Virus record (IMG/VR): IMGVR_UViG_3300016744_000001
Reading direction: 5' to 3' (one strand)
From: a virus
Taxonomy: Duplodnaviria > Caudoviricetes
DNA: 64,000 bases
This document shows, in pieces, positions 8,404 to 40,521 of the stretch; position 1 is the stretch's first letter; the number at the start of each line of letters is the position of its first letter. Made by a program: the position numbers and the translations under genes. The notes under the pieces are model-generated. The model did no database searches. It was not told the DNA's origin and worked only from the letters and a program-made list of their open reading frames with translations.

Positions 8404-8964
8404 ATGTCACTCATGAATAATGATGCAATGTTCCCGTACGTTGACATTGATGCCATCTACCTGAAGTGTGGCAACAATCAACGGCTAAAAGAAGTTTATC
8501 GGATGCTGCTTAACCAGCTCTACAGTGAATGTGATCAAGTGGTCTGTCCGATCACTGGTGATGATGCAACTAATCGGCACTTCACCTACAGCACATTCGC
8601 AGTGAATGCTGAATCATACCAAGCGTCCTATCATGACGAAGTGTACTCTTGGCATGTTGGTCCCACCGGGATCACAGTTCCGTATGGTAATGCCTTGTCA
8701 TTTCACATCTGCAGTTCTGACTGGCTGGCAAAGGTTTCCCGCTCATTGCGGTGTATCTGGCATGCTGCTCGATTGATCCCCAACGACGACAAATACCATC
8801 GGACATTCGTCAACATCAGTATCCCGTGGTTGGCGTTGGACAAACCAATCGACACCGTCACAGACCAAGAGTTGATTGACTACGCTGAAGTAGTCTTAGC
8901 ATCAATCTCTGGCCAAGTGTGGGTAAAGAACAAGCAGGTCATCAGTCTGCCAGCTTACCAATGA
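8404..8964 (+). CDS. hypothetical protein (first gene of radical SAM island operon)
   Basis: 186 aa, AGAGGA RBS, 7 nt upstream of 8972. Confidence 0.7.
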   Translation: MSLMNNDAMFPYVDIDAIYLKCGNNQRLKEVYRMLLNQLYSECDQVVCPITGDDATNRHFTYSTFAVNAESYQASYHDEVYSWHVGPTGITVPYGNALSFHICSSDWLAKVSRSLRCIWHAARLIPNDDKYHRTFVNISIPWLALDKPIDTVTDQELIDYAEVVLASISGQVWVKNKQVISLPAYQ

Positions 8965-8971
8965 GGCAATC

Positions 8972-9508
8972 ATGAACGAACTTATCATCAAAATCACAAT
9001 TGTGTCAAAACCACTGGCTTACTGGCAAACAAATGATCCAGTGATCCCATTTGGTCAAGCGGCGCATGTTGTTGAAAACGCCATGAGTCAGGTTCGCATT
9101 GGTGATGGGGTCGCCAAATGGAGTGCCCTTCCTGATAAGAACATTGACATGAGCGTAGCTCCTCACCACGGCACACATGACACAAGTGGCACTGATCCAA
9201 TCAGTATCCACCTGAGTCAAGTCAGTGACTTCACTGCACAACATGGCTCAATCGCAGCTTCAACTACTGTGGTTGGGCACATCCAAGTTGCCAGTGATGC
9301 TGACATCGCTACTGGTACAGAAACCGGCAAAGCTGTCAACCCAAAACAGTTGAAGACAGCTTTGGACGCTCTTTCATTGGTTGCCATCCAAGCCACTGCA
9401 CCGGAAAAGAAAACTGTGTTGTGGGTAAATACTACCGACTCAACGATCAACTACTGGAACGGGTCGGCTTGGGTAACCACAGTTGGGCGTTTTGCTGACG
9501 TGACCTAA
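8972..9508 (+). CDS. short tail-fibre/adaptor protein with Mtd_N-like N-terminus
   Basis: W.TNDPVIPFGQ...RIGDGVAKWSALP (Mtd N-terminal-like), fibre repeat ASTTVVGHIQVAS...GKAVNPKQLK, C-terminal LWVNTT...YWNGSAW. Confidence 0.75.
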   Translation: MNELIIKITIVSKPLAYWQTNDPVIPFGQAAHVVENAMSQVRIGDGVAKWSALPDKNIDMSVAPHHGTHDTSGTDPISIHLSQVSDFTAQHGSIAASTTVVGHIQVASDADIATGTETGKAVNPKQLKTALDALSLVAIQATAPEKKTVLWVNTTDSTINYWNGSAWVTTVGRFADVT

Positions 9509-9519
9509 AGGAGTTTGAA

Positions 9520-9789
9520 ATGGCCGTTAATGAAACGATTACTCAAACTACCTTTACTGGGTTCAGTCGATTCCCTAAGTTTGTGCACATTCAAGAACTG
9601 AAAACTGCGCTTACTCAACTGGATGCGTACAGTAAGAATGTTGTTAACTGCAACTGTGCCCCAAGTAACTGTTGCCAGGCAAACTGTTCTTATACCTGTC
9701 AATCCTGTCAAAGTTGTCAATGGTGTCAAACTTGTCAAAGTCAATGCCAAAATTGTTGGAACTGCAATTGTGGTGATGACGGATCTTAG
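9520..9789 (+). CDS. Cys-rich small protein 1, putative radical SAM substrate
   Basis: 89 aa, AAGGAG RBS; 14 Cys in the C-terminal half (NCNC..NCCQ..CQSCQSCQWCQTCQ..CWNCNC). Confidence 0.85.
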   Translation: MAVNETITQTTFTGFSRFPKFVHIQELKTALTQLDAYSKNVVNCNCAPSNCCQANCSYTCQSCQSCQWCQTCQSQCQNCWNCNCGDDGS

Positions 9790-9797
9790 GAGGTAGC

Positions 9798-10112
9798 ATG
9801 TCTTTACCAACCAGACAAGAAATCATTGACATGACTACTCAATTTGAGCAAATCCGTGACAGTGTAACCTACAAATCTGGTCAAACAAAACCAGTAATCG
9901 ACAAGCATACTCACACCGTAACTTTCCCGGAGAGGGTGACACTTACTTCGCTGCAAGCTGGGGTGAAACAACTTGAGAGTTATTACTCTCAAAACTGCAA
10001 TTGTTTAACCAACCCACAATGTTGCCAGACTTGTCAAATCTGTCAGGTGTGTCAAAGCTGTCAAAGTTGTGAAAGTGGTTGGTGTGAAAATAACTGTTTG
10101 CAGTGCAACTGA
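9798..10112 (+). CDS. Cys-rich small protein 2, putative radical SAM substrate
   Basis: 104 aa, AGGAGG RBS; 12 Cys (NCNC..CCQTCQICQVCQSCQSC..); paralog of 9520-9789. Confidence 0.85.
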   Translation: MSLPTRQEIIDMTTQFEQIRDSVTYKSGQTKPVIDKHTHTVTFPERVTLTSLQAGVKQLESYYSQNCNCLTNPQCCQTCQICQVCQSCQSCESGWCENNCLQCN

Positions 10113-10124
10113 TAGGAGACCATC

Positions 10125-10964
10125 ATGCTCAAGATATACTCCCTGGCTGTTGATCAGACAAGAAAGTTCTCAATTGATCTGGTGGACAACCAACTTTCTG
10201 TAAAAGTCATTGATGACTCAACCAACGGGATCGTCAATGAGTGCTCTCCCACCTTGATCGAGTCTTACCACTCTTATGGACTGTTTAGTGGCAACTTCGT
10301 TGAACGAGTGCCCAGCACAATTTTCAAAGAGTTGGATCAGGTGATCCATGCCGGATCACTCAAACTCGTGAACTATCTCCGCCTTGGTTATGGCCCACGG
10401 GAATCGTTCATGGGGATTGCTGACTTTTGGTCACACAACCCACTTGGTCAAGTTGACACTGGTTTGTACACCGACCAAGAAAAGGACATTGTGATCACTG
10501 TCTTTGGTGGTTGGAATCCGGATAGTATCGTCAATAGCTCGATCCCATACGAAGTCCGCACCCCACTGCCGGCAGACACATTTCACTCGCATAAATCCAA
10601 TGCCCGTTGGACGCTTTGGGATCGATATGCGGTCGGAATCAATGGCTTGGAATACTGGGCAGACCAAAACGGTATTCGAAAAGACACCAATGCAGAAACA
10701 ATTGCAATTCCAACAAAGGAATGTTTGGAGTTTAATCTCCAGAAGTATACCTCTGATTGGTCAACAAAGCTTGAACGCCCAGTCGACTGTAATGAACTAA
10801 CGCTTGAAACCACTTGTGGTCTTTTGCGCACAACCAGAGTCCCGTTGGTTGAAGGCAAAGCAAAATTCCACCTGTACCCGTTTGGTCATCTTGGTGAATT
10901 CAAAATCAAGGTTGGCTGGCGATGGTACCCTGTTTGGGATGAATACAAGTTCACGTTAATTTAA
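10125..10964 (+). CDS. radical SAM cassette accessory protein A1
   Basis: C-terminal ELTLETTCGLLRTTRVPL..GKAKF...G...KIKVGWRW matches the C-terminus of 16481-17482. Confidence 0.75.
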   Translation: MLKIYSLAVDQTRKFSIDLVDNQLSVKVIDDSTNGIVNECSPTLIESYHSYGLFSGNFVERVPSTIFKELDQVIHAGSLKLVNYLRLGYGPRESFMGIADFWSHNPLGQVDTGLYTDQEKDIVITVFGGWNPDSIVNSSIPYEVRTPLPADTFHSHKSNARWTLWDRYAVGINGLEYWADQNGIRKDTNAETIAIPTKECLEFNLQKYTSDWSTKLERPVDCNELTLETTCGLLRTTRVPLVEGKAKFHLYPFGHLGEFKIKVGWRWYPVWDEYKFTLI

Positions 10965-10968
10965 ATAT

Positions 10969-11000
10969 AGTAGTGAGAAGGTGTTTGCCTTCTCACTACT
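10969..11000. terminator. hairpin between accessory gene and first rSAM gene (cassette 1)
   Basis: agtagtgagaaggt-gttt-gccttctcactact. Confidence 0.65.
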
Positions 11001-11018
11001 GCAAATAAGGATTAAACC

Positions 11019-12098
11019 ATGAACAATCTGCTTTCTATCCCTGCTGTCAGAACTATCTTTCTGATGCTTGGACCTAAATGTAATCTGTCTTGCAAGTATT
11101 GCTTGCAGTCTTTAGATACGACTCCGGTTAAGCTCAACCCCGACATTTTTCCATTCATTGAAAAGATTGCTGAAGCAAACCCAGAAACACCAGTACACCT
11201 CCAATTTTTTGGAGGTGAGCCTTTGCTTCACTGGGATTCGGTAATCAAGGAAACACTAGATCATTTCGAAGGTGTTGAGAACATCCAGTTTTCCATGATC
11301 ACCAACGGTGTTGGTCTTACTCAAGAAATCGTGGATACCTGCAACCAGCGAAATGTTAGCATCTGTGTGTCGTGGGATGGGCCAAACACACAAGAACTTC
11401 GTGGGTTTGATGTTCTGAATTCTGAAAAACACCGAATATTGTTGTTGCAAGTTATTCGGCTTAGTTTGTCAGCTGTCGTCACATCCGAGTCATATCCAGT
11501 AGAGATCATCGATGCTGCGATGCCATTCGTTCTTGATTACCATGCTGCTACTGGAAATCACTGCTCGATCAACTTTGACACCATCTTTCAATCGAAAGAC
11601 CCCGAGCTTGAAAAGCTTGATCTCTCAAGATTGTACAACGATAATCAGATCTTGTGTGCCGAACTGAAAAAACGGTTGCTGAACCAAGAACACAACCCGT
11701 ACTACGCTCATCACGCTGATCAGATCTTTGGGATGTTGACCAAGTCAATTAAAAACGACACCGACTTCTTGTACAGTACCTGTGCATGTGAAAATGGGTA
11801 TGCTGTGCTCAACCTTGGAATTGACGGTACACTGTATCAGTGTCACAATGTGGCCACCGTACTCGGGAATATTTACTCCGGTTACCTTCCGTATATGAAG
11901 GCGGTGATCCGCAATGATCCTACGAAAACTAGGGTGGTTGAGACTTGTCAGCATTGCCCAGTTGTTGCAATGTGCAAAGGGGGATGCATGCTTGTTCCAG
12001 CTGACCAAATCAACGGTAATTACTGTGGAATCAAACGAGCGATGTTTCTTCCGTTCATTGAGCTTCTATTGTCCTTTGACAAGGATACTCCAAAATGA
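11019..12098 (+). CDS. radical SAM/SPASM domain protein
   Basis: CNLSCKYC, FFGGEPLL, ITNG, SWDG; SPASM Cys CAC...YQC...CQHCPVVAMCKGGC...C. Confidence 0.95.
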   Translation: MNNLLSIPAVRTIFLMLGPKCNLSCKYCLQSLDTTPVKLNPDIFPFIEKIAEANPETPVHLQFFGGEPLLHWDSVIKETLDHFEGVENIQFSMITNGVGLTQEIVDTCNQRNVSICVSWDGPNTQELRGFDVLNSEKHRILLLQVIRLSLSAVVTSESYPVEIIDAAMPFVLDYHAATGNHCSINFDTIFQSKDPELEKLDLSRLYNDNQILCAELKKRLLNQEHNPYYAHHADQIFGMLTKSIKNDTDFLYSTCACENGYAVLNLGIDGTLYQCHNVATVLGNIYSGYLPYMKAVIRNDPTKTRVVETCQHCPVVAMCKGGCMLVPADQINGNYCGIKRAMFLPFIELLLSFDKDTPK

Positions 12099-13057
12099 AA
12101 TCACTCACCATCCATTTAGGTAGCCAGTGCAACGCCGCTTGTGAGTACTGTCACTGTGAAAAAAATGGTCATCTTGAACCCGATGCTGAAGCATTAGCCG
12201 TCAGGATTAATGAACTTCCAGAACATTCCAGAGTGAAGTTTCTTGGTGGTGAACCATTGGTCTACTGGGACACAATCGAATACCTCCAAAAGAAGTTTCG
12301 TTTGAAGTATCAGTGGTCAGTTGGTACAAATGGTATCCTTCTTGACAAGTATCTTGACAAGTTGAAACGATTTCAAACTCAGATTTGTATCTCTTATGAC
12401 GGCAGCAGCTCTCTGCGAAAAATGCCGGTCAACTGGGATATCCTTTACCAGCTATCTGAATTGTGGTTGAGTTATACGGTGATGAACACCAATTGTGATG
12501 TGCTCAAAGAGATGACATTCATCGATGAGATCTCTAAAGAATACGTCACTCCTATCTGGTGCATTCCTCACTTCATGCATGCCTTGGTCCAAGAGCATCA
12601 ACCCTTTGTCATTACCGATCAGCAGCTTGATCAACTGATCGCTGATTGTCAGCTGGCAATTGACTACTTTGTTGATGCCGCCCCAACAAGTGTTCCAATG
12701 TCCAAGTACTTTGGAATCTATTTGTGGATTGCATCAAAAGTTCACCAGAACAATTTTTCCTTTGGTGAGACGACTTGCTTTAACAACAATCTGATCAAGA
12801 TCAACAATCAAGGGCAGTTGGTTTCTTGTTTGTACGATCAAAGCTTACACCTTTCTGACATCAATTGGTTTGATGTTCAAAAAGCTGAACTCCGCGAGCA
12901 TCAACCAAAATGTCAAACCTGTTTGGTGTATCGCTACTGTGGAGCAGCTTGTTACAAAAGCAAGTTCTCGGATCATGAATGTCAATTTTACAAAACCATG
13001 ATTCCATGGTTCGTGAGGAAGTATGGCCATAGACCACTTATTCGTCTTTGCCGATAG
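12095..13057 (+). CDS. radical SAM/SPASM domain protein
   Basis: CNAACEYC, GGEPL, TNG, SYDG; SPASM C...VSC...CQTCLVYRYCGAAC...C; ATGA overlap with the upstream gene. Confidence 0.93.
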   Translation: MKSLTIHLGSQCNAACEYCHCEKNGHLEPDAEALAVRINELPEHSRVKFLGGEPLVYWDTIEYLQKKFRLKYQWSVGTNGILLDKYLDKLKRFQTQICISYDGSSSLRKMPVNWDILYQLSELWLSYTVMNTNCDVLKEMTFIDEISKEYVTPIWCIPHFMHALVQEHQPFVITDQQLDQLIADCQLAIDYFVDAAPTSVPMSKYFGIYLWIASKVHQNNFSFGETTCFNNNLIKINNQGQLVSCLYDQSLHLSDINWFDVQKAELREHQPKCQTCLVYRYCGAACYKSKFSDHECQFYKTMIPWFVRKYGHRPLIRLCR

Positions 13058-13685
13058 CATCCAACTCCCGTGTAAACTGATCGTTGAGCGGGCCAATGGT
13101 GTCTATCAGTTCAAGTTGGACTTCTTGGATCAGGTAGTGGAGGTATCTCCAGAACTTCTAGAACAAAACTCTACTGTTGGTATCATGTACAACGCTGAGC
13201 TTCAAAAGCTTTACCCGTTGTACAACCTTCGAGAAGTCGCCAGCTTCATCGGTTGCAACTCAAAGCAACTGTGCCCTCAACTTGGGCAGAATTGCTTTGC
13301 TCAGATTGACAAGAAGTCTGATGAAGTCACGTTCATTAAGATCTTCTTGCCTCAGAGCCAACTGACGTGGCAGTCTGCCACGATTGACCGGAACACTCTG
13401 ACGATGGTTCAACTTGATCAGCTCACAGCAATTGATCAAGAATTCCAGCATGTCTGGGAAATCATTGATGTTTCGGTGATCAGTGATCGTCTTCTCGTCT
13501 CTATTGATTTCCATCGGAAGTATCCTGAACCAGTATTCCTTTTCTACGGTGGATTGTCACAAGAGTTGCATGAAGGGGTGCAACAGCTCTCGTTCCCATT
13601 CTTGAAAGGGAACAACCTTCACATCCGGTTTGACCGTACCAGGTTTTCGACTTGGCAGTATTCTGTGGACAGCAATATTAAATGA
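13023..13685 (+). CDS. hypothetical protein (last gene of cassette 1)
   Basis: 220 aa, GAGG RBS, overlaps the rSAM stop, followed by a hairpin. Confidence 0.7.
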   Translation: MAIDHLFVFADSIQLPCKLIVERANGVYQFKLDFLDQVVEVSPELLEQNSTVGIMYNAELQKLYPLYNLREVASFIGCNSKQLCPQLGQNCFAQIDKKSDEVTFIKIFLPQSQLTWQSATIDRNTLTMVQLDQLTAIDQEFQHVWEIIDVSVISDRLLVSIDFHRKYPEPVFLFYGGLSQELHEGVQQLSFPFLKGNNLHIRFDRTRFSTWQYSVDSNIK

Positions 13686-13768
13686 ACAGCACCTTTCCTA
13701 CTCTCCTTTCTTAAGGAGAGTATGGATGGTAGTATGCATTACAGATATCTTTCTTAAGGAGAAAGTCC

Positions 13769-14530
13769 ATGGCTGATATGACTGCAACAATCCCTGTCAA
13801 ACCAACAGTGTTTCCGGAACCATTTGCCAATTCTGGCGATACCACACAGCTCCCTCAGACAACCACCACTCCCGGCAAAGCATCGTTCGATGCTGGTTTC
13901 CCTGAGGAATGCTCCAAACCTCTGGCGGATGGTGGTCTCCCTCCCAGTCGTATTGACTTCAACTCAATTTTCAAATTGATCACGGAGTGGTTGCATTACT
14001 TCCAGTCTGGTGGCCAGGTCACCTACAATCAGGACCTGAACTATATCACTCCTGCTCTGGTGTTCTACAACGGCACAGGATACGAATGCACTGCCGACAA
14101 TGGTCCTGCAGTTGCTGGCATCGGTATCAAAATTCCTGGTGCTGTGGGCAGTGAAACTTTCTGGAAGCCTGCTTCAGGTGAGCTGAACATCAACCACTTT
14201 GGCAACAATGCGAACTCATACCTTTTGACAGGTTACTACTATATTGAGGACGCATACGCCACGCTGAACTTCCCAGTCATCGGTTCTGGTGGGTTCTTGA
14301 CCGTGTCACGTCGTGACAACAATCTGGATCAGGCATTCGTACTGAGGACAGACGCAACCAAACTGTATCGCCGCAATTCGACAGACGGTGGTACCACTTG
14401 GTCAACTTGGACAAAGGTCGTCCACACGACTGACATTCGTGGCGACGCCTACTGCCAGCGTTTCATCACCATGTCTGATCCAGACCATGCGATCGGTAAT
14501 GACAACGACCTGTGGATTGTGTACCGGTAA
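13769..14530 (+). CDS. tail fibre protein
   Basis: N-terminal PFANSGD..LP...GKASFDAGFP..CSKPLADGGLPPSRIDFNSIF (myovirus fibre attachment domain) plus pyocin-knob-like segment (GYYY...GFLTV...LYRR...WSTWTK). Confidence 0.85.
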   Translation: MADMTATIPVKPTVFPEPFANSGDTTQLPQTTTTPGKASFDAGFPEECSKPLADGGLPPSRIDFNSIFKLITEWLHYFQSGGQVTYNQDLNYITPALVFYNGTGYECTADNGPAVAGIGIKIPGAVGSETFWKPASGELNINHFGNNANSYLLTGYYYIEDAYATLNFPVIGSGGFLTVSRRDNNLDQAFVLRTDATKLYRRNSTDGGTTWSTWTKVVHTTDIRGDAYCQRFITMSDPDHAIGNDNDLWIVYR

Positions 14531-14553
14531 TTTTTACCCCCAAGGAAATCATC

Positions 14554-15612
14554 ATGACAGACTGCGTACTTTACTGGAATGGTTCTGGTGGCAAAGTTGT
14601 CTCACAGGGTATCCTGTTTGAGATCAGCACCAAACCTGACCTGGGTTTCGAGTACGAAACCCTGAGCTACGAACCATCCATGAACTTTGCCCACTACACG
14701 TTGGCAACCAAGGATGAAAACAACCTCAGCACCATCCTGAAAGTTGATCTTTCAGAAGCTGAACTCGTCAAGGTTCAGAATTTCTGCAATGTCTTCATTG
14801 ATACTGCAGACTACGAAGTGGCCGCCTACAACACCGATCGAGTGTTCGTTGGTGTGATCATGAAGTCCTTGGCGATTGAAAAGAACCTGAAGTACTCAAT
14901 CACCGAGCGGCCGCCCATGCCGATGGCGAAGTTCAACGAAACCACCGGCAAATGGGAACCCATCTTTGTGGCCTTCAAAGAAGATGGTTTTCCGCTGTTC
15001 AACGTCACCAAACTGTCAGACGACATGGTGATGTTCTTCACTGAAACCGAATGGAAGGCACTGCCCACTCAGCCTTCTTACCGGTACTCACTGGATTTTG
15101 CGACATTGACTTGGATGGACAAACGTGATCTTGTCCGTGTCAAGAATGATGCCCTCATGACACTGCGGGTGTACTACGAACATCAGGACATTCGTGCGAA
15201 TGCTGGTTTCCGCACACCCAAGGAAATGATCCAGTGGAACATCCAGTACAATGAAGCCAAGGCGTTTACCGCCGATTCCAAGGTCAGCACTCCTTTCCTT
15301 GACGGCTTCCTGTCCAAGAATCCTCAGAGCACCAAAGAAGAACTGTGCGCTAAGATTCTTGAAGACTACACTGACGAAGCCCTGTTTGTGGCCGGCGCCG
15401 ATCATGGTGAGATGTACAACTACGTCTACCGGATCAAATCTGCCACCACCAATGTGGCAGTTGACGCCATCGTTGACGAGGTCAATGCCAAACTGCAGAA
15501 GTACAAAGTGGTCAACTACAACCAGGCGTATCCTTCTGCTCCGGCCAAAGAAGGCGAAGAAACTCTTGTAGTTGTCGGAGGTACCATCAACCATGGCGTC
15601 GGCAGTCTATAA
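14554..15612 (+). CDS. tail fibre assembly/chaperone-like protein
   Basis: Follows the fibre gene; E..QW..QY.EAKAF......TPFLD......KEELCAKIL resembles fibre-assembly proteins; start at ATG 14554. Confidence 0.65.
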   Translation: MTDCVLYWNGSGGKVVSQGILFEISTKPDLGFEYETLSYEPSMNFAHYTLATKDENNLSTILKVDLSEAELVKVQNFCNVFIDTADYEVAAYNTDRVFVGVIMKSLAIEKNLKYSITERPPMPMAKFNETTGKWEPIFVAFKEDGFPLFNVTKLSDDMVMFFTETEWKALPTQPSYRYSLDFATLTWMDKRDLVRVKNDALMTLRVYYEHQDIRANAGFRTPKEMIQWNIQYNEAKAFTADSKVSTPFLDGFLSKNPQSTKEELCAKILEDYTDEALFVAGADHGEMYNYVYRIKSATTNVAVDAIVDEVNAKLQKYKVVNYNQAYPSAPAKEGEETLVVVGGTINHGVGSL

Positions 15613-15940
15613 AGTACAGGTGCGGGCCCAAGGTGCTTATCGTGGGTGTGTGCCTTTTGTGAAGGTTGCTGGTAAATACATCAATCCCAAAGCTATTTAC
15701 GTGAAAGTGAATGGTCTTTGGCGCGCAGCTTATGACAACTTTTACTGGTCGTACTACTGGATGACTGGTAACTGGTCTGGTTGTGCATGCGTCGGCAACT
15801 GCAGTAGCCGAGCAGTTTGGTGCAATTACTATCCGGAAATGCTCACCATGCCTGACAGCTATTGCTCGACGTCTGGTGACAAGCCTGCCACTGTTCAGTG
15901 GTGCAATTGTAATTGTGCGTGTGCCTGCTGTTGTGACTGA
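15593..15940 (+). CDS. Cys-rich fibre-associated protein with TSP1-like module and CxC tail
   Basis: GGAGG RBS before ATG 15593; VKVAGKY...IYVKVNGLWR fibre-type repeat, WMTGNWSGC..C..RAVWC...DSYC..KP..QWC, tail CNCNCACACCCD. Confidence 0.8.
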   Translation: MASAVYKVQVRAQGAYRGCVPFVKVAGKYINPKAIYVKVNGLWRAAYDNFYWSYYWMTGNWSGCACVGNCSSRAVWCNYYPEMLTMPDSYCSTSGDKPATVQWCNCNCACACCCD

Positions 15941-15989
15941 GGTTGCGACTAATTAGCAATTCAATTGCCAGTAAATAACAGACCTTTAT

Positions 15990-16023
15990 ACAGAGTACCC
16001 ACCTTTTAAGGTGGGTACTCTGT
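15990..16023. terminator. hairpin after Cys-rich gene (cassette 2)
   Basis: acagagtacccacctt-tt-aaggtgggtactctgt. Confidence 0.7.
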
Positions 16024-16086
16024 CAATGATTAATCTTGTTATCTATAAAGATGGTACCAATCTAAAACAATTTCATGGAGTGCAAC

Positions 16087-16488
16087 ATGAGTAACGAAGA
16101 TACCAAATCTGAGGCAGAACGTTTTTCTCTTCCCAGTCAGTTTGTGATGGAAGAGGATACTGAACAGTATCGTCTCAAAACCGATAAAGTGTACACCTAT
16201 CATCGTGATGGTGAACTGGTGATCCAAATCGACTTCAGTGACTTTGCCATCAACAAAGACGACATCGACCGCCTGGGTGAAGAAGCCGTAATCAACCAAA
16301 TCCAGCAGGATGCGCTGGTGTTGGCGATGAAGCTGACTGGTGGGCTGAAACCAGGAGATGTTGAAAAACTGAACAATGAAGAAGTACGGGTTCTTACCGA
16401 AACTGAGATCGAAGACGCCACTGCGTTCATTGCCAGTCATCAGCAGTTCATGAGCGACCCCCAACAAACGGAGACCCCCAATGGGTAA
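16087..16488 (+). CDS. acidic hypothetical protein
   Basis: GGAG RBS; overlaps the start of 16481. Confidence 0.7.
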   Translation: MSNEDTKSEAERFSLPSQFVMEEDTEQYRLKTDKVYTYHRDGELVIQIDFSDFAINKDDIDRLGEEAVINQIQQDALVLAMKLTGGLKPGDVEKLNNEEVRVLTETEIEDATAFIASHQQFMSDPQQTETPNG

Positions 16489-17482
16489 ACCAACCTTGTT
16501 TATCATCCGGAAAGAGATGGACATCCTTCGTCCGTTTGTTATTCGAGTTACCCGTGAGGAAGACCTTCTTCAGGTAGAGTACCTTTACCGCACCATGGTC
16601 AAAGGTGAGCAGAAGGACTTCTTGGTTCTCGGGTATCGGCTTACTCGTGAGTTCCTTGAGAAGCGCAATGACTGGAAAGACAACACCCAATTTGGCATGC
16701 ATCTCAAGGACTATGACATCTCTTACATGCACAGCTGTGTCAGGATCATCCAACAGTTCGTTGACTCTGGATTGTCGTATGCCGATGTCTGCGCTGCAGT
16801 CAGTGCTCACATGCCCAGATTCAACACAATCAACCGCAACGGATACCTGATCAACATCAGTGCCGCCAGCTACATCGGTAAAGTTTCTTCCGTGGAAGCT
16901 CATGTGTTGATCCCTGCTTACCGGGTGATCAACTGGGTACAGAAACTGAAGAGCACCAAGTTCACGGAATGCTGTGTCAACTTGGCAGCTGACCCTGCTT
17001 GCACCGTAGAAGTGATCACTGGTGATCGGACGCAGGACATCTGCAACAGCAGTGAGATCTACAAAGATCTCATCCACAAGGATGAAGCGATCAAACAGCA
17101 GGTTTGGCGTCCCAAACTCAAACTCACCCAGCAGCCAAAACGGTATCCGATCGTCAACAACTTCCCCAGTCGCACTCACTCACTGTTGCGCACGGATCTG
17201 GTTGTCGAAGATTTCACCGGCGTGGTCTTTCCTGATGAATCAGTCACATTTGACGTGCAATTGGTTCGGGAGTGGTACGGTGATGAAATCCACTCCCCGG
17301 CTGAAATCTATCTGGAATGCGTCAATGGTTACTTGCCGAAGACACGTATCCGGTTGGATGAAAACGGTCATGGTACTTTCCGGTTCATTTCCCTTGGTCT
17401 TGAGAAGGGTGACATCATGAAGGTCAAAGCTGGTTTCAGGTTCATGACAAACTCTGCTGAAGCGGATATCGCAATCATCTAA
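16481..17482 (+). CDS. radical SAM cassette accessory protein A2
   Basis: C-terminal EIYLECVNGYLPKTRIRL..GHGTF...G...KVKAGFRF homologous to 10125-10964. Confidence 0.75.
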   Translation: MGKPTLFIIRKEMDILRPFVIRVTREEDLLQVEYLYRTMVKGEQKDFLVLGYRLTREFLEKRNDWKDNTQFGMHLKDYDISYMHSCVRIIQQFVDSGLSYADVCAAVSAHMPRFNTINRNGYLINISAASYIGKVSSVEAHVLIPAYRVINWVQKLKSTKFTECCVNLAADPACTVEVITGDRTQDICNSSEIYKDLIHKDEAIKQQVWRPKLKLTQQPKRYPIVNNFPSRTHSLLRTDLVVEDFTGVVFPDESVTFDVQLVREWYGDEIHSPAEIYLECVNGYLPKTRIRLDENGHGTFRFISLGLEKGDIMKVKAGFRFMTNSAEADIAII

Positions 17483-17493
17483 CAGTCATTCTC

Positions 17494-17523
17494 ACAGAGT
17501 CAGGGAGTACTCCCTGACTCTGT
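17494..17523. terminator. perfect palindrome between accessory gene and rSAM genes (cassette 2)
   Basis: acagagtcagggagt|actccctgactctgt. Confidence 0.7.
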
Positions 17524-17580
17524 ATATCTACTGCATTATTTATGCATCGGTTACACCAAAAATAAACCTGAGGAACAGAT

Positions 17581-18819
17581 ATGTTAAGTCTAGTCTTCAA
17601 TGACAAATCGCTTGAGAAATTCAAGATCGACTTCAATCCGTACACCATGAAGTTTGGTCAGGATGTCCAAGATATCAAACCGCTGATGACTGTGCAAACA
17701 AAGATCCACAGCAAGTCACCAAAAGTGCTCAAAATCATGCTTGGTGACGCTTGCAACTTTCGCTGTAAGTATTGCCGTCAAGATCATCATGGTCGGAAAG
17801 ATTCTTTCAATCCGGCACGATTAGCAGCATTCATGCAGATGCTCACGAACAACCTGTCACTGCATCAGCTTGAACGTGTGGAGTACTGGGGCGGTGAACC
17901 CCTCTTGTATTGGGATGAAATCCGGTACTTGATGGACAGAATCGAGACACACGTAAAACGGCCCGTAACGCACCATATAACGACGAATGGCAGTTTGCTG
18001 ACCAATGACATCGTTTCAGACATAAAGTCGCTTAAATACCTCTTTAAGCTCTCTCACGATGGTCCTGGGCAAAGTCTTCGCACGGCAGATCCATTGAAGC
18101 TGCATGAAAGCAAGATCATGGATCTGTACACCCACATGAAGACGGCTGAAGGAAGCAAGTTTCACATCAACTCGGTGCTGACCAAATTGTGTCCGTCACC
18201 TTTCACGATTGTGGATTTCTTCCGAAAGAGGTTTGACAACGATGTCTCGATCATGAAGATCGAACCAGTCATCCCGTACAATGATGATGCGTTGTCTTAC
18301 GCGATCAATCCAGCAGACATGCCGAAGTTCTCATTCCAGATCGCCAACGACATCATCCGTGGGGATATCGTCAGAAGTGTTGTGGAATACCAACAGCTGT
18401 GGGATGCTTTCGTTTTGATGGAAGCTGCCCCTGACTACATCTACAACATGACTGAAGCCAAATGTCATGGGTCACAGTTGATGACTATCTGCACTGATCT
18501 CGATGGTAACCTCACCCCTTGTCAGGTGTATGACAACTACACTCCTGATCAAGTCATCGGCCATCTGACCAAGCTGGATGACATCAAGGAAGAACTTCCT
18601 TATGCTCCGATCAATCGCGCCGGTCGTTGCACCAACTGCCCTGTGATCTCACTGTGCCGTGGGGTATGCCCACACATTGCTCCTGGTCAGCATGCTGACA
18701 CCAACTGTCTGATGCGGTACAACACGTACCTGGGTATCCTTACTGCGTTCCTGTTTTTCAAGACTCAGAAATTCTTGATTCAAGTTAACGGGGACTATTA
18801 CCACAACCAACAAAGGTAG
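17581..18819 (+). CDS. radical SAM/SPASM domain protein
   Basis: CNFRCKYC, YWGGEPLL, TTNG, SHDGPGQ; SPASM C...PC...CTNCPVISLCRGVC...C. Confidence 0.95.
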   Translation: MLSLVFNDKSLEKFKIDFNPYTMKFGQDVQDIKPLMTVQTKIHSKSPKVLKIMLGDACNFRCKYCRQDHHGRKDSFNPARLAAFMQMLTNNLSLHQLERVEYWGGEPLLYWDEIRYLMDRIETHVKRPVTHHITTNGSLLTNDIVSDIKSLKYLFKLSHDGPGQSLRTADPLKLHESKIMDLYTHMKTAEGSKFHINSVLTKLCPSPFTIVDFFRKRFDNDVSIMKIEPVIPYNDDALSYAINPADMPKFSFQIANDIIRGDIVRSVVEYQQLWDAFVLMEAAPDYIYNMTEAKCHGSQLMTICTDLDGNLTPCQVYDNYTPDQVIGHLTKLDDIKEELPYAPINRAGRCTNCPVISLCRGVCPHIAPGQHADTNCLMRYNTYLGILTAFLFFKTQKFLIQVNGDYYHNQQR

Positions 18820-18824
18820 TTCAC

Positions 18825-20156
18825 ATGCAACTGATTACCTTAAAGAATGGTACTCAGCTTAAGTTCGATCCAGTCAGCGTTAAGTTCTTCCAGATGGACG
18901 GTACTCCGATCACGGTCAGGAATGATATCAATGCTGATCAAGATTGTTCCAAAGTGAGTAACCAACTGAACATGCACATGCATGCGAACACAAGATTCGA
19001 CAACCCGAAAAACTTGCGTATCGTTCTTGGGCACGCCTGCAACTTCAAGTGCAAATACTGCAGTCAGAGTCACTCACCTCTTGACCTGCCCCCGGCCAAA
19101 CAAGTTAGCAAGTTCATGATGGACTTGTTCAAAACGACTAATCTTTCCCAGTTGAAGGTTATCCAATTCTGGGGTGGTGAACCACTGCTGTACTGGCCAA
19201 CCATCTGCTTCTTTATGGATGCATTCCGGGAGATCAATCCCAACATTGGGTTCTCTATCGTGACCAATGGTAGTTTGATCACCAAGCGCATGGGCGATGT
19301 CATTCTGAACGACGACCAGTTTGGTTTCATCCTTTCTCATGACGGTCCGGGTCAACATCTCCGTGGGATTGATCCATTGGCTCTGGGTTCTCGTACCAGA
19401 GACATCCTGTTACAGTTGGCAAAGGAAAAGGTGCCCAACCAACACCGGAAGTACTTGAATGAAGGAAGGAACTTTGCAGTCAATCCGGTGATCACCTCAG
19501 CTGTGGGTTCACTCACATCCTTGGTAGAATGGTACGACAAAGCCTTTGAAGGTTGCGAAGTACCAATCGCTGAATCAATTCCTGTGATCCCAATCCAAGA
19601 CGACACGGCACAATACGCGCTGCATCATGACGATCTACCCAAGTATACAGCGATGATCTACCACGATCTACTGAAGCTTGGGTTGCATCGTTTTGACAAC
19701 TACAAGATGCTGTATGATCTCTTCCTTCAGAAGTGGTCACTTCCGCAATTCTTGGTGAACCCCAAAAAAGCTTTGTGCTTCACCACCGATCCATACATGC
19801 TGACATTGGACCTGAATGGTAACATCTTACCATGCCAGACTTTTGCAGCTTCGGATCATCTTGGTAATGGGGAACCAGCATCTTACAGTAACCTGCTGGA
19901 TTTTGGTGACAAGACTGATCCCACCACAACCGGACCAGACATCAAAATGCCAACAGTTCATGGTTATGGTAGCCGAGGTAGTAAGTGTAGTAACTGCCCA
20001 GTAGTTTCTTTCTGCATGGGTGGTTGTCCTTACCTTGTTGGTGCACAACACGACATTGACTGCCGTGTCAAGTACCATCATTTCCTTGGACTACTGTTTA
20101 CCTTTGTCACAATGGCCTTTGGTGAAAAGGTCCTCAAAATCGAAACCCTCGATTGA
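18825..20156 (+). CDS. radical SAM/SPASM domain protein
   Basis: CNFKCKYC, FWGGEPLL, VTNG, SHDGPGQ; SPASM C...PC...CSNCPVVSFCMGGC...C; paralog of 17581-18819. Confidence 0.95.
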   Translation: MQLITLKNGTQLKFDPVSVKFFQMDGTPITVRNDINADQDCSKVSNQLNMHMHANTRFDNPKNLRIVLGHACNFKCKYCSQSHSPLDLPPAKQVSKFMMDLFKTTNLSQLKVIQFWGGEPLLYWPTICFFMDAFREINPNIGFSIVTNGSLITKRMGDVILNDDQFGFILSHDGPGQHLRGIDPLALGSRTRDILLQLAKEKVPNQHRKYLNEGRNFAVNPVITSAVGSLTSLVEWYDKAFEGCEVPIAESIPVIPIQDDTAQYALHHDDLPKYTAMIYHDLLKLGLHRFDNYKMLYDLFLQKWSLPQFLVNPKKALCFTTDPYMLTLDLNGNILPCQTFAASDHLGNGEPASYSNLLDFGDKTDPTTTGPDIKMPTVHGYGSRGSKCSNCPVVSFCMGGCPYLVGAQHDIDCRVKYHHFLGLLFTFVTMAFGEKVLKIETLD

Positions 20157-20161
20157 TGACT

Positions 20162-20189
20162 ATCCCTGCTAGGCTATCCTAGCAGGGAT
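20162..20189. terminator. hairpin ending the rSAM island
   Basis: atccctgctagg-ctat-cctagcagggat. Confidence 0.7.
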
Positions 20190-20193
20190 GTCT

Positions 20194-20472
20194 TTACTTG
20201 CATTTCATTGGCTGTGCTGGTTGAGTGCTAAATGATGGTACATCAAACAACTGCAGCATGAACCCCTTTTCATGAATGAGTACTACAACACCATTGACGC
20301 ACCACATGTCAATGTTGGCTCCCCAGCTTTTCGAAGATTTGAAATGATCCATTTCTCTGATGGGCTTGTCTTCGATTGTTGCTGCAATCACTGCCTCAGT
20401 TGCAATCTGGTCAGTAGCAACACCACAAAGAACTACCAACAAAACAATGAGTTTAAAAATAAACTTCCGCAT
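20194..20472 (-). CDS. small exported/membrane-anchored protein
   Basis: Basic then hydrophobic N-terminus MRKFIFKLIVLLVVLCGVA; AGGAG upstream. Confidence 0.6.
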   Translation of the reverse strand: MRKFIFKLIVLLVVLCGVATDQIATEAVIAATIEDKPIREMDHFKSSKSWGANIDMWCVNGVVVLIHEKGFMLQLFDVPSFSTQPAQPMKCK

Positions 20473-20534
20473 ACATGTTCTCCTTTATATAACCGTACCA
20501 TCAAATACCAATTCAACGAAAGGTCTTTCCACGA

Positions 20535-20542
20535 TATATTAC
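20535..20542 (+). promoter_or_regulatory. phiKZ-type early promoter motif TATATTAC
   Basis: Exact motif in the intergenic region upstream of ORF 20620. Confidence 0.55.
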
Positions 20543-20619
20543 AACCTTGAACGTATGCTGTGGATCTTTACGACAATTCTTGATTGTATACAGAAATCTC
20601 TGCTAAAGAGGAGTGTTTG

Positions 20620-21744
20620 ATGAAAAGTCAACAGTTCATCTACGTTGATGCGCATCCAAAAGAACTGAAGGATGACTCGCAATATAAGTGTCTTGGTACC
20701 GTTGAGATCAGTGATGTGTTCTACACGGTTGAAGTGGATGGTCGCATCCAGCTCAAGCTGGTTACTTCTGCTCCGGGCTGGGCCAAGATTCTCAATGACT
20801 GTACACAATTTAACACCGAGACCATCTGCGCTGTTCTGATGGATACGGAAGATGTCACCATCGGTGACTCGTTCGAAGTCTTTCGTTTAATGGACAATGG
20901 ACGCACTGAACTGAAAGAACAGGAGAACGAGTACTTCAACCTCAGTGCCAAGGATGATGAGAACCATCTGGTCTTTCGTTGGCGGTTGAAATCAAGGTAT
21001 CATGGTGACCCTGAAAAGCACACCACCCGAACGGCCTCTGTCGTCTATGGACCTCGGTTCTGCCCAATCTGTGGGGAGGAGCTGGACATTGATGAAACGA
21101 TCGGTGATCCCATCTGTCCGAATAGTAACTGCCGAATCTACAAGTATCTGGCGATTACTCGTTTCTTAAATGTCGCTTGCAGGTTGCCACAGCATCAACG
21201 GTTTGGTCGTCTCCTTGTTGACCATCAAGTGATTGGGTCAACAGCGGATATTTTCGAAGTGCTTTCCAGCAAGAAGTCCTTGCTTCAGCAGTACGGAAAT
21301 CCACAGTACGTCAAAACGTTTATTGACGACCTGTCATCAATCAAAGGAACAATCACTCTCGCTGACTGGGTGAACTCCCTTCCGACACTGCGTCATGACT
21401 TCTACATGGTGGAGAAACCGCTTGTCAAGATCTGTCAACCCGCCGGCAATGTTGTCAATCTGAAGAACTACCTGTGTGCAACTGCGCTCAACAAGGATTT
21501 TGGGAGTAACCCAGTAAACCTCGTGAACTGGGTGGACGACTTGTTCAGTGATGTCATCTATGCTGATGACACTACTGAATTTGCAGATTGGCGGGAATCC
21601 CAAACGAAGAAGATCTTGAAGTACATGTCGGTTCCTGTCTTCTTCAGCCTTGCAGAAGTTTTCAACTATGGCCATCCGTCAGAAGAAGACTATCCCACAA
21701 CATTGGAAAAGCTCCAACGTCTTGGAGTATTCAAAACCAGTTAG
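20620..21744 (+). CDS. C4 zinc-finger protein resembling the C-terminal half of NAD-dependent DNA ligase
   Basis: P.FCPICGEEL...CPNSNC...ITRF...L.D...I.STADIF as in the LigA Zn-finger/HhH region; no KxDG motif seen. Confidence 0.5.
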   Translation: MKSQQFIYVDAHPKELKDDSQYKCLGTVEISDVFYTVEVDGRIQLKLVTSAPGWAKILNDCTQFNTETICAVLMDTEDVTIGDSFEVFRLMDNGRTELKEQENEYFNLSAKDDENHLVFRWRLKSRYHGDPEKHTTRTASVVYGPRFCPICGEELDIDETIGDPICPNSNCRIYKYLAITRFLNVACRLPQHQRFGRLLVDHQVIGSTADIFEVLSSKKSLLQQYGNPQYVKTFIDDLSSIKGTITLADWVNSLPTLRHDFYMVEKPLVKICQPAGNVVNLKNYLCATALNKDFGSNPVNLVNWVDDLFSDVIYADDTTEFADWRESQTKKILKYMSVPVFFSLAEVFNYGHPSEEDYPTTLEKLQRLGVFKTS

Positions 21745-39330: not shown

Positions 39331-40436
39331 TCAGCAACAATACGAACTGGCGGCAAACGTACTACCAACAGGTCATGGCTTGTCTCAAAGAGTTTTGTGG
39401 TAAGCCTGCTGAAATACCGGCAACGCTAACACTACCAGCATCCGACAAAAACTGCATGTTCGAGTTTGGTGGCAGCAAGTTTTCTTCGGGAACAGCGATG
39501 CTTGTTGCCACTCCTTCAGGATTTCCAAACTCAGCAATTGCGTTGAAACAACGTAAACGCAATGGCATTCATGCCAGCAGTAAAGTGTGGATCAATTGTC
39601 TGATAGGGATCGCTCATCATCAATACGGAATAACCAACATTGGGATCTACCAAGTCAAACGGATTCGTCGAGCTGACAGTGTTGTCCAAGGGACTAAGCT
39701 CGAAAACATCGTTGATCTGGAACTCATTGTTGGGTTAACACAAGCCAGTCCGGAACAAACCAGAGACCTGGACTGGCTGTCTCCGTATCATCGAAAATAT
39801 CCAGGACTGCGCAAACTTGCATCTGTCTTACTGGATAAGCTGGAGATGTTCAACTGTGCAGTTCCGATGTACCTTGAACCATTCAGGATTATTCGGAAGT
39901 ACACACAGAAAGAGCCTGACTTCAACAAGCTCATGCTGTACACAGATCTGACGATTCCTGAGAACCTGTCAGATCTGGTTCCAAAGTACGTAATTTACGA
40001 AAAGAACATGGCAGAGGTAATCAGGTTTGATCACTTCTACCAGTTTGAGAATGCCTTGACGAACACCTGTCAACAGCTGATCCAAACTTACCCGTTCATT
40101 TACTTGCTGTTGTGTCATCACACATCACCAAGTGAGTCAGGTGGGGTGGAACTACTCACGCACGCTTTCATTTGCTCTCAGGAGAACGAAGGTAAACCGT
40201 TATTGTTCCACAAGACAGGTTATGTCTACAAACACACTGGTCAAGAGATTGGTCGTTCGACTGACCTTGAAGGCTTCATCCGAAGCAACTACAATGAGTC
40301 GTACCTACACAGCTTGCTTGGTGTTCACGGTGGTGGCATCCAAAGACTGCTCACGTACATCAAAAGTAGTAAAGATGGGTGTTTGTACGTCCCACTCAAG
40401 TTCGTGCTCTGTACACGCAAATACACGCAATTTTGA
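39324..40436 (+). CDS. hypothetical protein
   Basis: 370 aa, coupled to the upstream gene, ends at a hairpin. Confidence 0.65.
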   Translation: MVISNNTNWRQTYYQQVMACLKEFCGKPAEIPATLTLPASDKNCMFEFGGSKFSSGTAMLVATPSGFPNSAIALKQRKRNGIHASSKVWINCLIGIAHHQYGITNIGIYQVKRIRRADSVVQGTKLENIVDLELIVGLTQASPEQTRDLDWLSPYHRKYPGLRKLASVLLDKLEMFNCAVPMYLEPFRIIRKYTQKEPDFNKLMLYTDLTIPENLSDLVPKYVIYEKNMAEVIRFDHFYQFENALTNTCQQLIQTYPFIYLLLCHHTSPSESGGVELLTHAFICSQENEGKPLLFHKTGYVYKHTGQEIGRSTDLEGFIRSNYNESYLHSLLGVHGGGIQRLLTYIKSSKDGCLYVPLKFVLCTRKYTQF

Positions 40437-40438
40437 GC

Positions 40439-40470
40439 ATAGTGAGTGCAGGTCACCCTGCACTCACTAT
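40439..40470. terminator. intergenic hairpin
   Basis: atagtgagtgcagg-tcac-cctgcactcactat; supports the 40522 start. Confidence 0.65.
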
Positions 40471-40521
40471 TTATGTCGGGATCATATGGTCAATTCAAAA
40501 GCTTACCTAAGAGGAAGAATC

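Follow-up and report, generated by a model that had tools for sequence, protein, structure and literature searches.

What role could two sets of radical SAM (rSAM)/SPASM enzymes, each encoded as a pair close to fibre-type and Cys-rich proteins, play in a virus? Such maturases are familiar from small secreted peptides and a few enzyme subunits. The genes lie in a 64,000-nucleotide stretch of viral DNA (hereafter the window), and the genome bearing both cassettes is that of a phiKZ-like giant phage. The original prediction held that the enzymes modify fibre or receptor-binding components and do not make secreted RiPPs.

Gene content of the two cassettes

All the ORFs on which this prediction rested are present in the window (Table 1), as are the three Cys-rich proteins, each with a CNC motif in its sequence, and the two intergenic hairpins; beyond these two we detected a third, terminator-like hairpin at the end of cassette 2. 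The identification of four rSAM/SPASM enzymes also held. Their PF04055 scores (34.7–39.1 bits against a cutoff of 29.5) satisfy membership of the Radical SAM superfamily, the CX3CX2C motif is found at residues 21, 12, 58 and 72 of rSAM1–4 respectively, each has a GGEP motif, and the seven-Cys pattern CX9-15GX4C ... CX2CX5CX3C ... C is complete in all four, which satisfies SPASM membership. The SPASM model TIGR04085 exceeded its cutoff only in rSAM4 (29.2 bits against 27). As had been claimed, no exporter/transporter, peptidase/leader protease or immunity family was found across 8404–21744 with Pfam and PHROGs.

Table 1. Features of the two cassettes and their neighbourhood, with the basis of each assignment
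Coordinates	Strand	Feature	Basis
8972..9508	+	Fibre-like protein, 178 aa, without Cys tail; precedes cassette 1	ORF; weak PHROG match
9520..9789	+	CysA, Cys-rich protein, 89 aa; candidate substrate	Homologues, family alignment
9798..10112	+	CysB, Cys-rich protein, 104 aa; candidate substrate	Sequence
10125..10964	+	Accessory protein 1, 279 aa, all-beta, C-terminal Ig-like (Big_1/intimin-like) domain	Predicted structure
10969..11000 (approximate)	+	Intergenic hairpin, 12–13 bp stem, 6-nt loop, no T-tract	Direct sequence reading
11019..12098	+	rSAM1, radical SAM/SPASM, 359 aa, without N-terminal RRE	PF04055 34.7 bits; motifs
12095..13057	+	rSAM2, radical SAM/SPASM, 320 aa, 4-nt overlap with rSAM1	PF04055 39.1 bits; motifs
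13023..13685	+	Conserved module protein, 220 aa	Homologues in other loci
13769..14530	+	Tail fibre protein, 253 aa, N-terminal fibre domain	PHROG matches
14554..15612	+	352-aa protein, after fibre gene in all cassette-2 relatives	Start from L003 orthologue
15593..15940	+	Cassette-2 Cys-rich protein, 115 aa; candidate substrate	Alignment; L003 orthologue supports start
16087..16488	+	Acidic protein, 134 aa, conserved upstream of accessory protein 2	Orthologues
16481..17482	+	Accessory protein 2, 333 aa	C-terminal domain homologous to that of accessory protein 1
17494..17523	+	Intergenic perfect palindrome/hairpin	Direct sequence reading
17581..18819	+	rSAM3, radical SAM/SPASM, 412 aa, ~50-aa N-terminal extension	PF04055 35.6 bits; motifs
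18825..20156	+	rSAM4, radical SAM/SPASM, 443 aa	PF04055 38.2 bits; TIGR04085
20161..20190	+	Terminator-like hairpin at end of cassette 2, 13-bp stem	Hairpin scan

The tail fibre assigned to the 253-aa ORF is well supported (phrog_12796 tail fiber, 3.9e-15, and five more fibre PHROGs). Two other labels found no such support: the 178-aa protein had been called an Mtd_N-type fibre, but Pfam Mtd_N (PF18454) is unmatched even at E 0.5, no Pfam family is recovered at E up to 0.5 and the best indication is a weak tail-collar-fibre match in PHROGs (2.5e-5), and the description of the 352-aa protein as an assembly protein is backed by no family in Pfam or PHROGs. The proposed homology of the two accessory proteins applies to their C-terminal Ig-like domain (hhalign probability 91%, E 1e-6; BLASTP E 0.004) and not to the remainder. 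For accessory protein 1, whose family comprises 62 representatives in 1.8e9 proteins, an AF2 model was obtained (pLDDT 87.9, pTM 0.85) in which the C-terminal domain gave VIA at Z 9.6, with whole-length resemblance (TM 0.5–0.6) to uncharacterised phage proteins. This model and the fold comparison indicate an all-beta, Ig-like protein and not the winged helix of an RRE. Accessory protein 2 has 14 related clusters, and its C-terminus is 35% identical to RSP15 ORF047 (E 2e-12).

A recent duplication was considered as the origin of the two cassettes and rejected, because their enzymes share only 22–32% identity and each type has its own distribution elsewhere.

Recurrence of the modules and of the Cys tails in other phages

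Cassette 1 is one instance of a module that is widespread but has no name and comprises one or more Cys-tailed proteins, an all-beta accessory protein of ~280 aa, two rSAM/SPASM enzymes and a protein of ~220 aa. The pairing of rSAM enzymes with Cys-tailed proteins was encountered in more than 50 other phage contigs. With the accessory protein as the sole query, 55 IMG/VR loci were retrieved, and a Cys-tailed gene was present within ~600 nt upstream in every one (55/55), usually as the next or next-but-one ORF. It is accompanied by rSAM genes and by the gene for the 220-aa protein, in agreement with the proposed co-occurrence of accessory protein, rSAM enzymes and Cys-rich proteins across phages. 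Further contigs beyond these likewise all had the upstream Cys-tailed gene and its companions, and when searches were started from rSAM1 instead, Cys-tailed genes again adjoined its close relatives. Outside the module only a handful of Cys-rich tails were found among ~1650 plus-strand ORFs. This gene arrangement is far beyond chance; given that the loci are related by descent, they do not represent 55 independent events. The carriers range from 35-kb prophage-like contigs to jumbo phages of 240–300 kb, and across them the genes appear in differing order, substrates occur both fused and split, and the proteins share only 20–38% identity. In the small phages the module is placed between the tail and lysis genes.

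Among individual relatives, the gut-phage locus L019 encodes a CysA 51% identical to that of the window, along with counterparts of rSAM1 (37%) and rSAM2 (30%). Homologues of the 220-aa protein are encoded either between the two rSAM genes or following them in L019 and L004 (E 7e-22), with a counterpart in the same position in L006–L008, and CysB-type genes come after CysA in related loci. Cassette 2 is a second conserved type, shared with L070, L071 and L073, where the 352-aa protein also keeps its position; the acidic 134-aa protein has orthologues in L003, L070 and L073, and a positional counterpart in L071. For the cassette-2 enzymes the closest counterparts come from two cultured phages, Achromobacter JWF and Ralstonia RSP15, in which the enzyme genes adjoin Cys-tailed fibres: rSAM3 is 29% identical to JWF gp030 (E 6e-38; 42% to the L073 enzyme) and rSAM4 30% to RSP15 ORF045 (E 2e-48). 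We found no publication or curated family describing these cassettes.

In CysA a conserved region at the N-terminus is accompanied by CQxCQ repeats, and the protein ends in NCNC-GDD; its family comprises at least 262 clusters, every one of them unnamed, and the family alignment reveals strong conservation of the Gln following each Cys. CysB, which is similar to it, combines CQxCQ repeats with NCNC and an HxH motif, and in the window its C-terminus is without the DD motif. The cassette-2 Cys-rich protein has a TSP1-like middle and a CNCNC...CCCD end; the Pfam model TSP1_ADAMTS matched three of six aligned family members (best 3.9e-11), the window copy remaining unmatched. Among 71 distinct tails, 60 terminate in C-x-C-(G/S)-D-D, i.e. 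C..(G/S)DD, and 66 have the last Cys 3–8 residues from the C-terminus, which places an Asp just C-terminal of a Cys, as in the geometry of PapB. In alignments spanning 20–50% identity the Cys are the invariant feature of the tail, and many relatives have HxH motifs 10–20 residues upstream of it.

Elsewhere, the same tail also terminates proteins of 266–946 aa, and some of them have strong tail-fibre matches. The tail is fused to a 946-aa fibre in L009 (phrog_33406, 6e-35), to a 367-aa fibre in L011 (phrog_892, 9e-15) and to the tail fibre JWF gp028. In L004 and JWF gp028 a self-cleaving Hint domain comes after the tail, reminiscent of Hint/Hedgehog-type domains and of the C-terminal tailspike chaperones that cleave themselves off. 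As this domain starts at G|CF or S|CF, the mature C-terminus would be alike in all forms, with cleavage being inferred from the motif only. Gut-phage relatives retain a free-standing Hint_2 protein; a Hint gene is absent from the window.

Relationship to characterised maturases

The four enzymes are relatives of PapB and not members of its family (NF047865), with scores of 95.9, 46.4, 78.9 and 57.9 bits for rSAM1–4 against a cutoff of 340. PapB is the top curated (NCBIfam) match for rSAM1 (2.7e-27, below cutoff), rSAM3 and rSAM4, and narrowly second for rSAM2, and the match spans the full length of rSAM1–3. All family-maturase matches in NCBIfam are far below their cutoffs, save TIGR04085 for rSAM4, and anSME, cyclophane and HxsB/C models also score. 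The cassettes share with the PapB/PapA (freyrasin) system an rSAM/SPASM enzyme and repeated Cys motifs with an Asp just C-terminal of Cys. They differ from it in the low scores (46–96 bits), in the lack of an RRE, in having fibre-type substrates of up to 946 aa as opposed to a short secreted peptide, and in possessing two enzymes and two partner proteins without any family. PapB installs thioethers with the Asp C-terminal of the Cys and is also active at the peptide C-terminus (PMC12373016). CXXX-repeat maturase models (TIGR04114/04115/04117) were not among the best 25 listed NCBIfam matches, and that system has a Cys at every fourth residue, whereas in the window proteins it recurs at every third (CQx) or every second (CNC).

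The rSAM/SPASM enzyme QhpD forms thioethers from Cys to Asp/Glu, and its target is not an antibiotic but one subunit of a protein complex. The QhpD/QhpC system (quinohemoprotein amine dehydrogenase gamma subunit) provides the second-best NCBIfam match of rSAM1; however, the 73.9 bits fall short of the cutoff of 453 (TIGR03906), so that membership is not met, and the cassettes lack the quinone cofactor, the peptidase QhpE and the dehydrogenase genes. Judged by sequence, TigE of the TigE/TigB cyclopropylglycine system (PDB 8VPO) is the closest protein of solved structure, with CteB (5WGG) among the nearest. TigE acts on a repeat-containing precursor (PMC10878394), but it makes C-C bonds on Ile/Val, in contrast to the Cys-repeat tails of the cassettes, and has an RRE at residues 3–85. 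Given that its product, methylcyclopropylglycine, arises through a C-C bond and not a thioether, the reaction type cannot be read from similarity. With CteB/SCIFF and the sacti/ranthipeptide maturases the cassettes have in common the SPASM fold, two auxiliary clusters and a Cys-rich C-terminal core, the alignments covering ~320 residues with weak similarity (E 5e-12 and 2e-5); they differ in their phage structural-module context. The alignments to TigE and CteB both begin after the N-terminal RRE of those proteins, and no PqqD-like RRE was found on the cassette enzymes or a partner, rSAM1 and rSAM2 starting at the cluster motif.

A proposed reaction and its alternatives

Gene content, enzyme motifs, strict co-occurrence and fusion of the tail to real fibres are all observed; that the tail is the substrate, which bond is formed, what the accessory proteins do and that the products are part of the virion are inferences. 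On balance we favour the view that both cassettes are RiPP-like maturation systems for tail-fibre or fibre-associated substrates, probably cross-linking fibre C-termini through thioethers. The substrates would be CysA, CysB and the cassette-2 TSP1-like protein, in each of which a short Cys-X-Cys tail lies within a few residues of the C-terminus. The two SPASM enzymes of each cassette would cleave SAM reductively and then abstract hydrogen from the tail, and the Cys sulfur would bond with a carbon in an Asp, Asn or Gln nearby, giving a ranthipeptide-type thioether like that of PapB on Cys-X3-Asp. A free-thiol tail may thereby turn into a knot that is redox-stable and resists proteases, formed either inside a single chain or across the chains of a trimeric fibre. 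With the enzymes lacking an RRE, the Ig-like accessory protein, together with the 220-aa protein in cassette 1, would most likely present the substrate or scaffold the complex. The more specific version, in which enzymes guided by an Ig-like adaptor in place of an RRE staple the Cys tails of fibres or receptor-binding proteins by thioethers, possibly between the three fibre chains, and the Hint domain of some lineages is a self-removing follower, is advanced only tentatively, as it falls somewhat short of an even chance. There is no chemical evidence for any modification.

The same pairing of enzyme and substrate could also serve a reaction other than thioether formation on Cys, such as anSME-like oxidation of Cys to formylglycine, epimerisation, C-C cross-links, cyclopropanation or modification of Gln/Asn. 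Jointly these are unlikely without being negligible: they draw on the proximity to the cyclopropyl synthase TigE, the scores of the anSME, cyclophane and HxsB/C models, the conserved Gln of CysA and the existence of relatives (RP12) whose neighbours are His/Tyr-rich, not Cys-rich, but have to contend with the invariance of the Cys, the ranking of thioether-forming PapB among the curated matches and the fit of the C..DD end to its regiochemistry. A metallated fibre component, which the original prediction had allowed, remains a live alternative to which we assign perhaps half that weight. Here the tails would bind metal, in the manner of metallothionein or as Fe-S or Zn on the fibre axis, with the rSAM enzymes not cross-linking them but building or inserting the metal centre or acting elsewhere in the fibre. 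In T4 fibres, metal ions along the three-fold axis are coordinated by HxH motifs, and the CxC, CC and CxxC patterns and the HxH upstream of many tails would suit such a role; yet it leaves the constant company of two SPASM maturase-like enzymes and two dedicated partners unexplained, and no metallochaperone family was detected in profile searches including Pfam and NCBIfam.

That a RiPP released during infection (a bacteriocin, signal or anti-defence agent), unrelated to the virion, is made from the small Cys-rich proteins seems more doubtful still. Their size (89–115 aa) and their division into a conserved N-terminal and a variable Cys-rich part resemble a leader and core, and the enzymes do resemble RiPP maturases, but the same tail terminates the long, partly fibre-matching proteins, the module occupies the tail-to-lysis region, and neither an RRE nor any protease, exporter or immunity gene was found. 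The fibre fusions, this location and the lack of a transporter or protease constitute comparative support for the core of the original prediction, modification, thioether and virion presence not being demonstrated. Least credible, and very improbable in our estimation, is adjacency through descent without function: many of the retrieved loci do come from related phages, but the module persists across backbones of very different size despite reordering, fusion or splitting of substrates and low identity.

If fibres do have a dedicated rSAM set, it would represent a new type of virus-particle maturation beside the HK97-type isopeptide chainmail and self-cleaving fibre chaperones; it would account for at least 262 unnamed clusters of Cys-repeat phage proteins and offer RiPP enzymology a new substrate-recognition partner. 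Should the stapling proposal be true, a virus particle would for the first time be seen to contain a radical cross-link installed by an enzyme, and a RiPP pathway would have been repurposed for structural proteins. Since fibre tips set host range, the modification could be relevant to phage engineering and to heterologous fibre expression, and fibres of this kind might, when so expressed, need their cassette and a supply of Fe-S under anaerobic conditions. Related cassettes in Achromobacter JWF and Ralstonia RSP15, both of them cultured, make the question directly testable.

Gene content of the window and its radical SAM enzymes

The window belongs to a phiKZ-like jumbo phage: one of its ORFs matches the PhiKZ_MCP profile, and its proteins are recorded on a contig of 273 kb. 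All ORFs initially called in the region 8972-20156 are present as listed and fall into two successive cassettes. Cassette 1 includes the Cys-rich proteins CysA (9520) and CysB (9798), accessory protein 1 (10125), the radical SAM (rSAM) enzymes rSAM1 (11019) and rSAM2 (12095), and a 220-aa protein (13023). Cassette 2 comprises a fibre, a ~350-aa protein (14554), a third Cys-rich protein (15593), an acidic protein (16087), accessory protein 2 (16481), rSAM3 (17581) and rSAM4 (18825). The hairpins predicted after both accessory genes were confirmed by sequence, a terminator-like hairpin ends cassette 2, and CNC motifs are found in all three Cys-rich proteins, as had been claimed. An SbcC-like gene lies immediately upstream of the cassettes, and the 875-aa collar-domain protein is a further fibre candidate without the Cys-rich C-terminus (Cys tail) described below. 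A megablast search of the cassette region against phage records returned no match.

Features of the window and of related loci (plain coordinates refer to the window; L-numbers denote relatives' loci)
Feature	Coordinates	Strand	Match
SbcC-like nuclease subunit, 848 aa	5737-8283	-	phrog_77 2e-37
Cassette 1	8972-13685		
Divergent CysB tail	10030-10112; L003:2-76		
Cassette 2	13769-20156		
Gap, Cys protein to acidic protein	15940-16087		
phiKZ-type major capsid protein	30335-32647	-	PhiKZ_MCP 5e-18
875-aa protein, C-terminal Phage Tail Collar domain	40132-42759	+	
Free-standing Hint_2 protein	L019:7613-8008		PF13403
HNH/AP2-like homing-endonuclease-type gene	L003:6051-6950; L070:7033-7977; L071:8470-9562		
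MadL/MadM genes	L071:11245-12370		
Cys-rich proteins beside distant rSAM1 relatives	L142:2879-5772		
Ralstonia phage RP12 rSAM cluster	L001, 81049-96029		

The assignment of four rSAM/SPASM genes held up: each product scores above the Radical_SAM Pfam cutoff, and all four display the CX3CX2C and GGEP motifs together with a complete seven-cysteine SPASM pattern. The ranthipeptide thioether maturase PapB is the best curated NCBIfam match for three of them and ranks second, in a near-tie, for rSAM2, with full-length alignments for rSAM1-3. Its scores across the four enzymes (46-96 bits) lie far below the cutoff of 340, which makes them relatives rather than members of the PapB family. As rSAM1 and rSAM2 begin at the cluster motif, they lack an RRE (PqqD-like) domain.

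Distribution of the cassette 1 module and its Cys-tailed proteins

CysA, CysB, the 220-aa protein and the accessory proteins all fall outside the curated families, accessory protein 1 being without any Pfam, PHROG or NCBIfam family. Clustered at 90% identity, CysA makes up at least 262 clusters, and the few with a source name among the top 120 are all termed hypothetical or uncharacterised. When 1.8 billion representatives were searched with a profile, 62 proved to be relatives of accessory protein 1, nearly all of about 275 aa, on contigs sharing a set formed by the accessory protein, an rSAM enzyme, a ~220-aa homologue of ORF 13023 (E 7e-22) and a second rSAM enzyme. A structure search with the 220-aa protein gave no usable match, only low-TM beta-sandwich entries. 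Neither an IMG/VR scan with accessory protein 1 as a single protein nor tblastn against phage records, with this protein and its counterpart from the gut-phage locus L019, found a match. An IMG/VR scan with a 10-sequence accessory alignment yielded 55 loci, and the neighbourhood check put forward in the original prediction, run via the accessory protein, bore out the association, a Cys-tailed gene lying just upstream in all 55.

Gut phages typically carry, in this order, rSAM1, CysA, CysB, a free-standing Hint_2 protein, the accessory gene, rSAM2, a ~225-aa protein and lysis genes, and in small phages the module sits between tail and lysis genes. The module-bearing host genomes are those of anaerobes (Acidaminococcus, Megasphaera, Sporomusaceae, Ruminococcus and an Elusimicrobiota MAG). 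The cassette 1 genes of the window are orthologues of those in this module, with identities to the gut-phage proteins of 37% for rSAM1, 51% for CysA, 31% for the accessory protein, 30% for rSAM2 and 25% for the 220-aa protein. The gene order differs, and the Hint gene is absent from the window. The free-standing Hint_2 protein, of 120-135 aa and without the N-terminal catalytic Cys, is encoded after CysB and before the accessory gene in L019, with counterparts in four further loci (L038, L064, L066 and L067).

In the reverse search from rSAM1, close relatives (>=32% identity) again adjoin Cys-tailed genes, more distant ones occur in variant arrangements, in which rSAM genes number three or four or the Cys-rich proteins are giant, and the most distant have no Cys-tailed neighbour. 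Among the more distant relatives (L142, L121 and L128), some are neighbours of an 856-aa protein containing 37 Cys and a 115-aa protein containing 30; others adjoin CysA/CysB pairs, after which come three further rSAM genes. The Cys-rich/rSAM theme is wider than the two cassette types of the window. Not every phage relative is part of the system: the rSAM of the Campylobacter CP220 group was rejected as a member for want of any fibre or Cys-tail context.

The Cys tail ends in the form C..(G/S)DD in 60 of the 71 distinct tails collected, with the last Cys 3-8 residues before the C-terminus in 66. It terminates not only small proteins such as CysA and CysB but also longer ones (266-946 aa), among them several clear tail fibres, namely those of L009 (phrog_33406, 6e-35) and L011 (phrog_892, 9e-15) and gp028 of the cultured Achromobacter phage JWF. 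We read the Cys tail as a fibre C-terminus. In L004 and JWF gp028 a Hint domain, starting G|CF or S|CF, directly follows the tail; should it cleave itself off in the usual manner of Hint domains, the mature end would coincide with that of the unfused proteins. Between the window and the relative L003, which is 75-96% identical, the CysB tail differs strongly, its cysteines being conserved and the remainder changed, as would be expected of a fast-evolving part in contact with the host.

Accessory protein 1 and the inferred maturation of fibres

An AlphaFold model of accessory protein 1 from 41 sequences was confident and all-beta (pLDDT 87.9, pTM 0.85); AF2 with only 3 sequences had given a poor model (pLDDT 53). 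The model shows the C-terminal domain (166-279) as a sandwich with an Ig-like fold, matching the Big_1/intimin/GH2 type with Z up to 9.6; over the whole length, structural matches are confined to phage proteins that are uncharacterised and 250-305 aa long (TM 0.5-0.6). The model thus predicts neither an enzyme-like fold nor an RRE. Given this, and the lack of an RRE in rSAM1 and rSAM2, we infer that the accessory protein presents the substrate.

Gene content, motifs, co-occurrence and fusions are directly established. That the rSAM enzymes would act on the Cys tails is an inference: across 20-50% identity, the substrate candidates encoded next to the enzymes all share these tails and nothing else. 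The reaction itself would be thioether formation, an inference with three grounds: it is Cys that is conserved, Cys thioethers are the product of the best curated relatives, and in the C-x-C-(G/S)-D-D end an Asp follows Cys closely on its C-terminal side, as in the arrangement used by PapB (PMC12373016). This step is weak because the closest solved structure by sequence is TigE, which is a cyclopropyl synthase and not a thioether-forming enzyme. Metal binding by the tails would also suit the data, and HxH motifs upstream of them speak for it. Should thioethers be formed, whether they link residues within one chain or between chains cannot be told from the present data. Both chemistry and virion presence are inferred; the novelty would lie in the use of rSAM/SPASM peptide maturation on the fibre proteins of virions, together with a partner protein that is itself new. 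Full-text literature searches, with a check of papers merely co-mentioning the terms, turned up no description of the system, and phage papers treat rSAM genes merely as an oddity (e.g. PMC3322345).

The second cassette type and related clusters

Cassette 2 is a second type that is conserved on its own. The idea that the two cassettes arose by a recent tandem duplication was dropped, because identities are too low and the distributions of the cassettes are separate. The proposed homology of the accessory proteins stands only for the C-terminal Ig-like domain common to both, whereas the remainder is not shared. Accessory protein 2 has 14 related clusters, whose contigs show the order fibre, ~350-aa protein, ~115-130-aa Cys protein, ~140-aa acidic protein, accessory 2 and, last, a pair of rSAM genes. 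In the Cys protein family the middle part resembles thrombospondin type 1, with a TSP1_ADAMTS match in three of six members but none in the window copy, and most members end in a CNCNC...CCCD tail. The nearer relatives of rSAM3 and rSAM4 are not rSAM1 and rSAM2 but JWF gp030 and ORF045 of the cultured Ralstonia phage RSP15 (28-30% identity, E 6e-38 to 2e-48). In RSP15, ORF045 is preceded by a 'side tail fiber' gene whose product ends N-C-Q-C-G-N, a 271-aa protein with a C-terminus homologous to accessory 2 (E 2e-12), and a 276-aa protein.

Between the Cys and acidic proteins three relatives carry a homing-endonuclease-type gene, and the corresponding 147 nt in the window are without one; this gap looks like a recurrent insertion site. 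In one metagenomic relative, malonate transporter genes separate accessory 2 from the rSAM genes, a placement without explanation.

In RP12, three consecutive rSAM genes follow a virion structural protein, a 125-aa protein and the 295-aa ORF075, which adjoins them. A weaker structural match to accessory protein 1 (TM 0.29) is a 295-aa RP12 protein, probably ORF075 given the same length, though its identity was not confirmed. Sequence comparison of the accessory proteins with ORF075 and JWF gp029 was negative. The 125-aa protein is His/Tyr-rich, contains two HTH motifs and lacks Cys altogether. The RP12 cluster may represent a sister system whose substrate chemistry is different.
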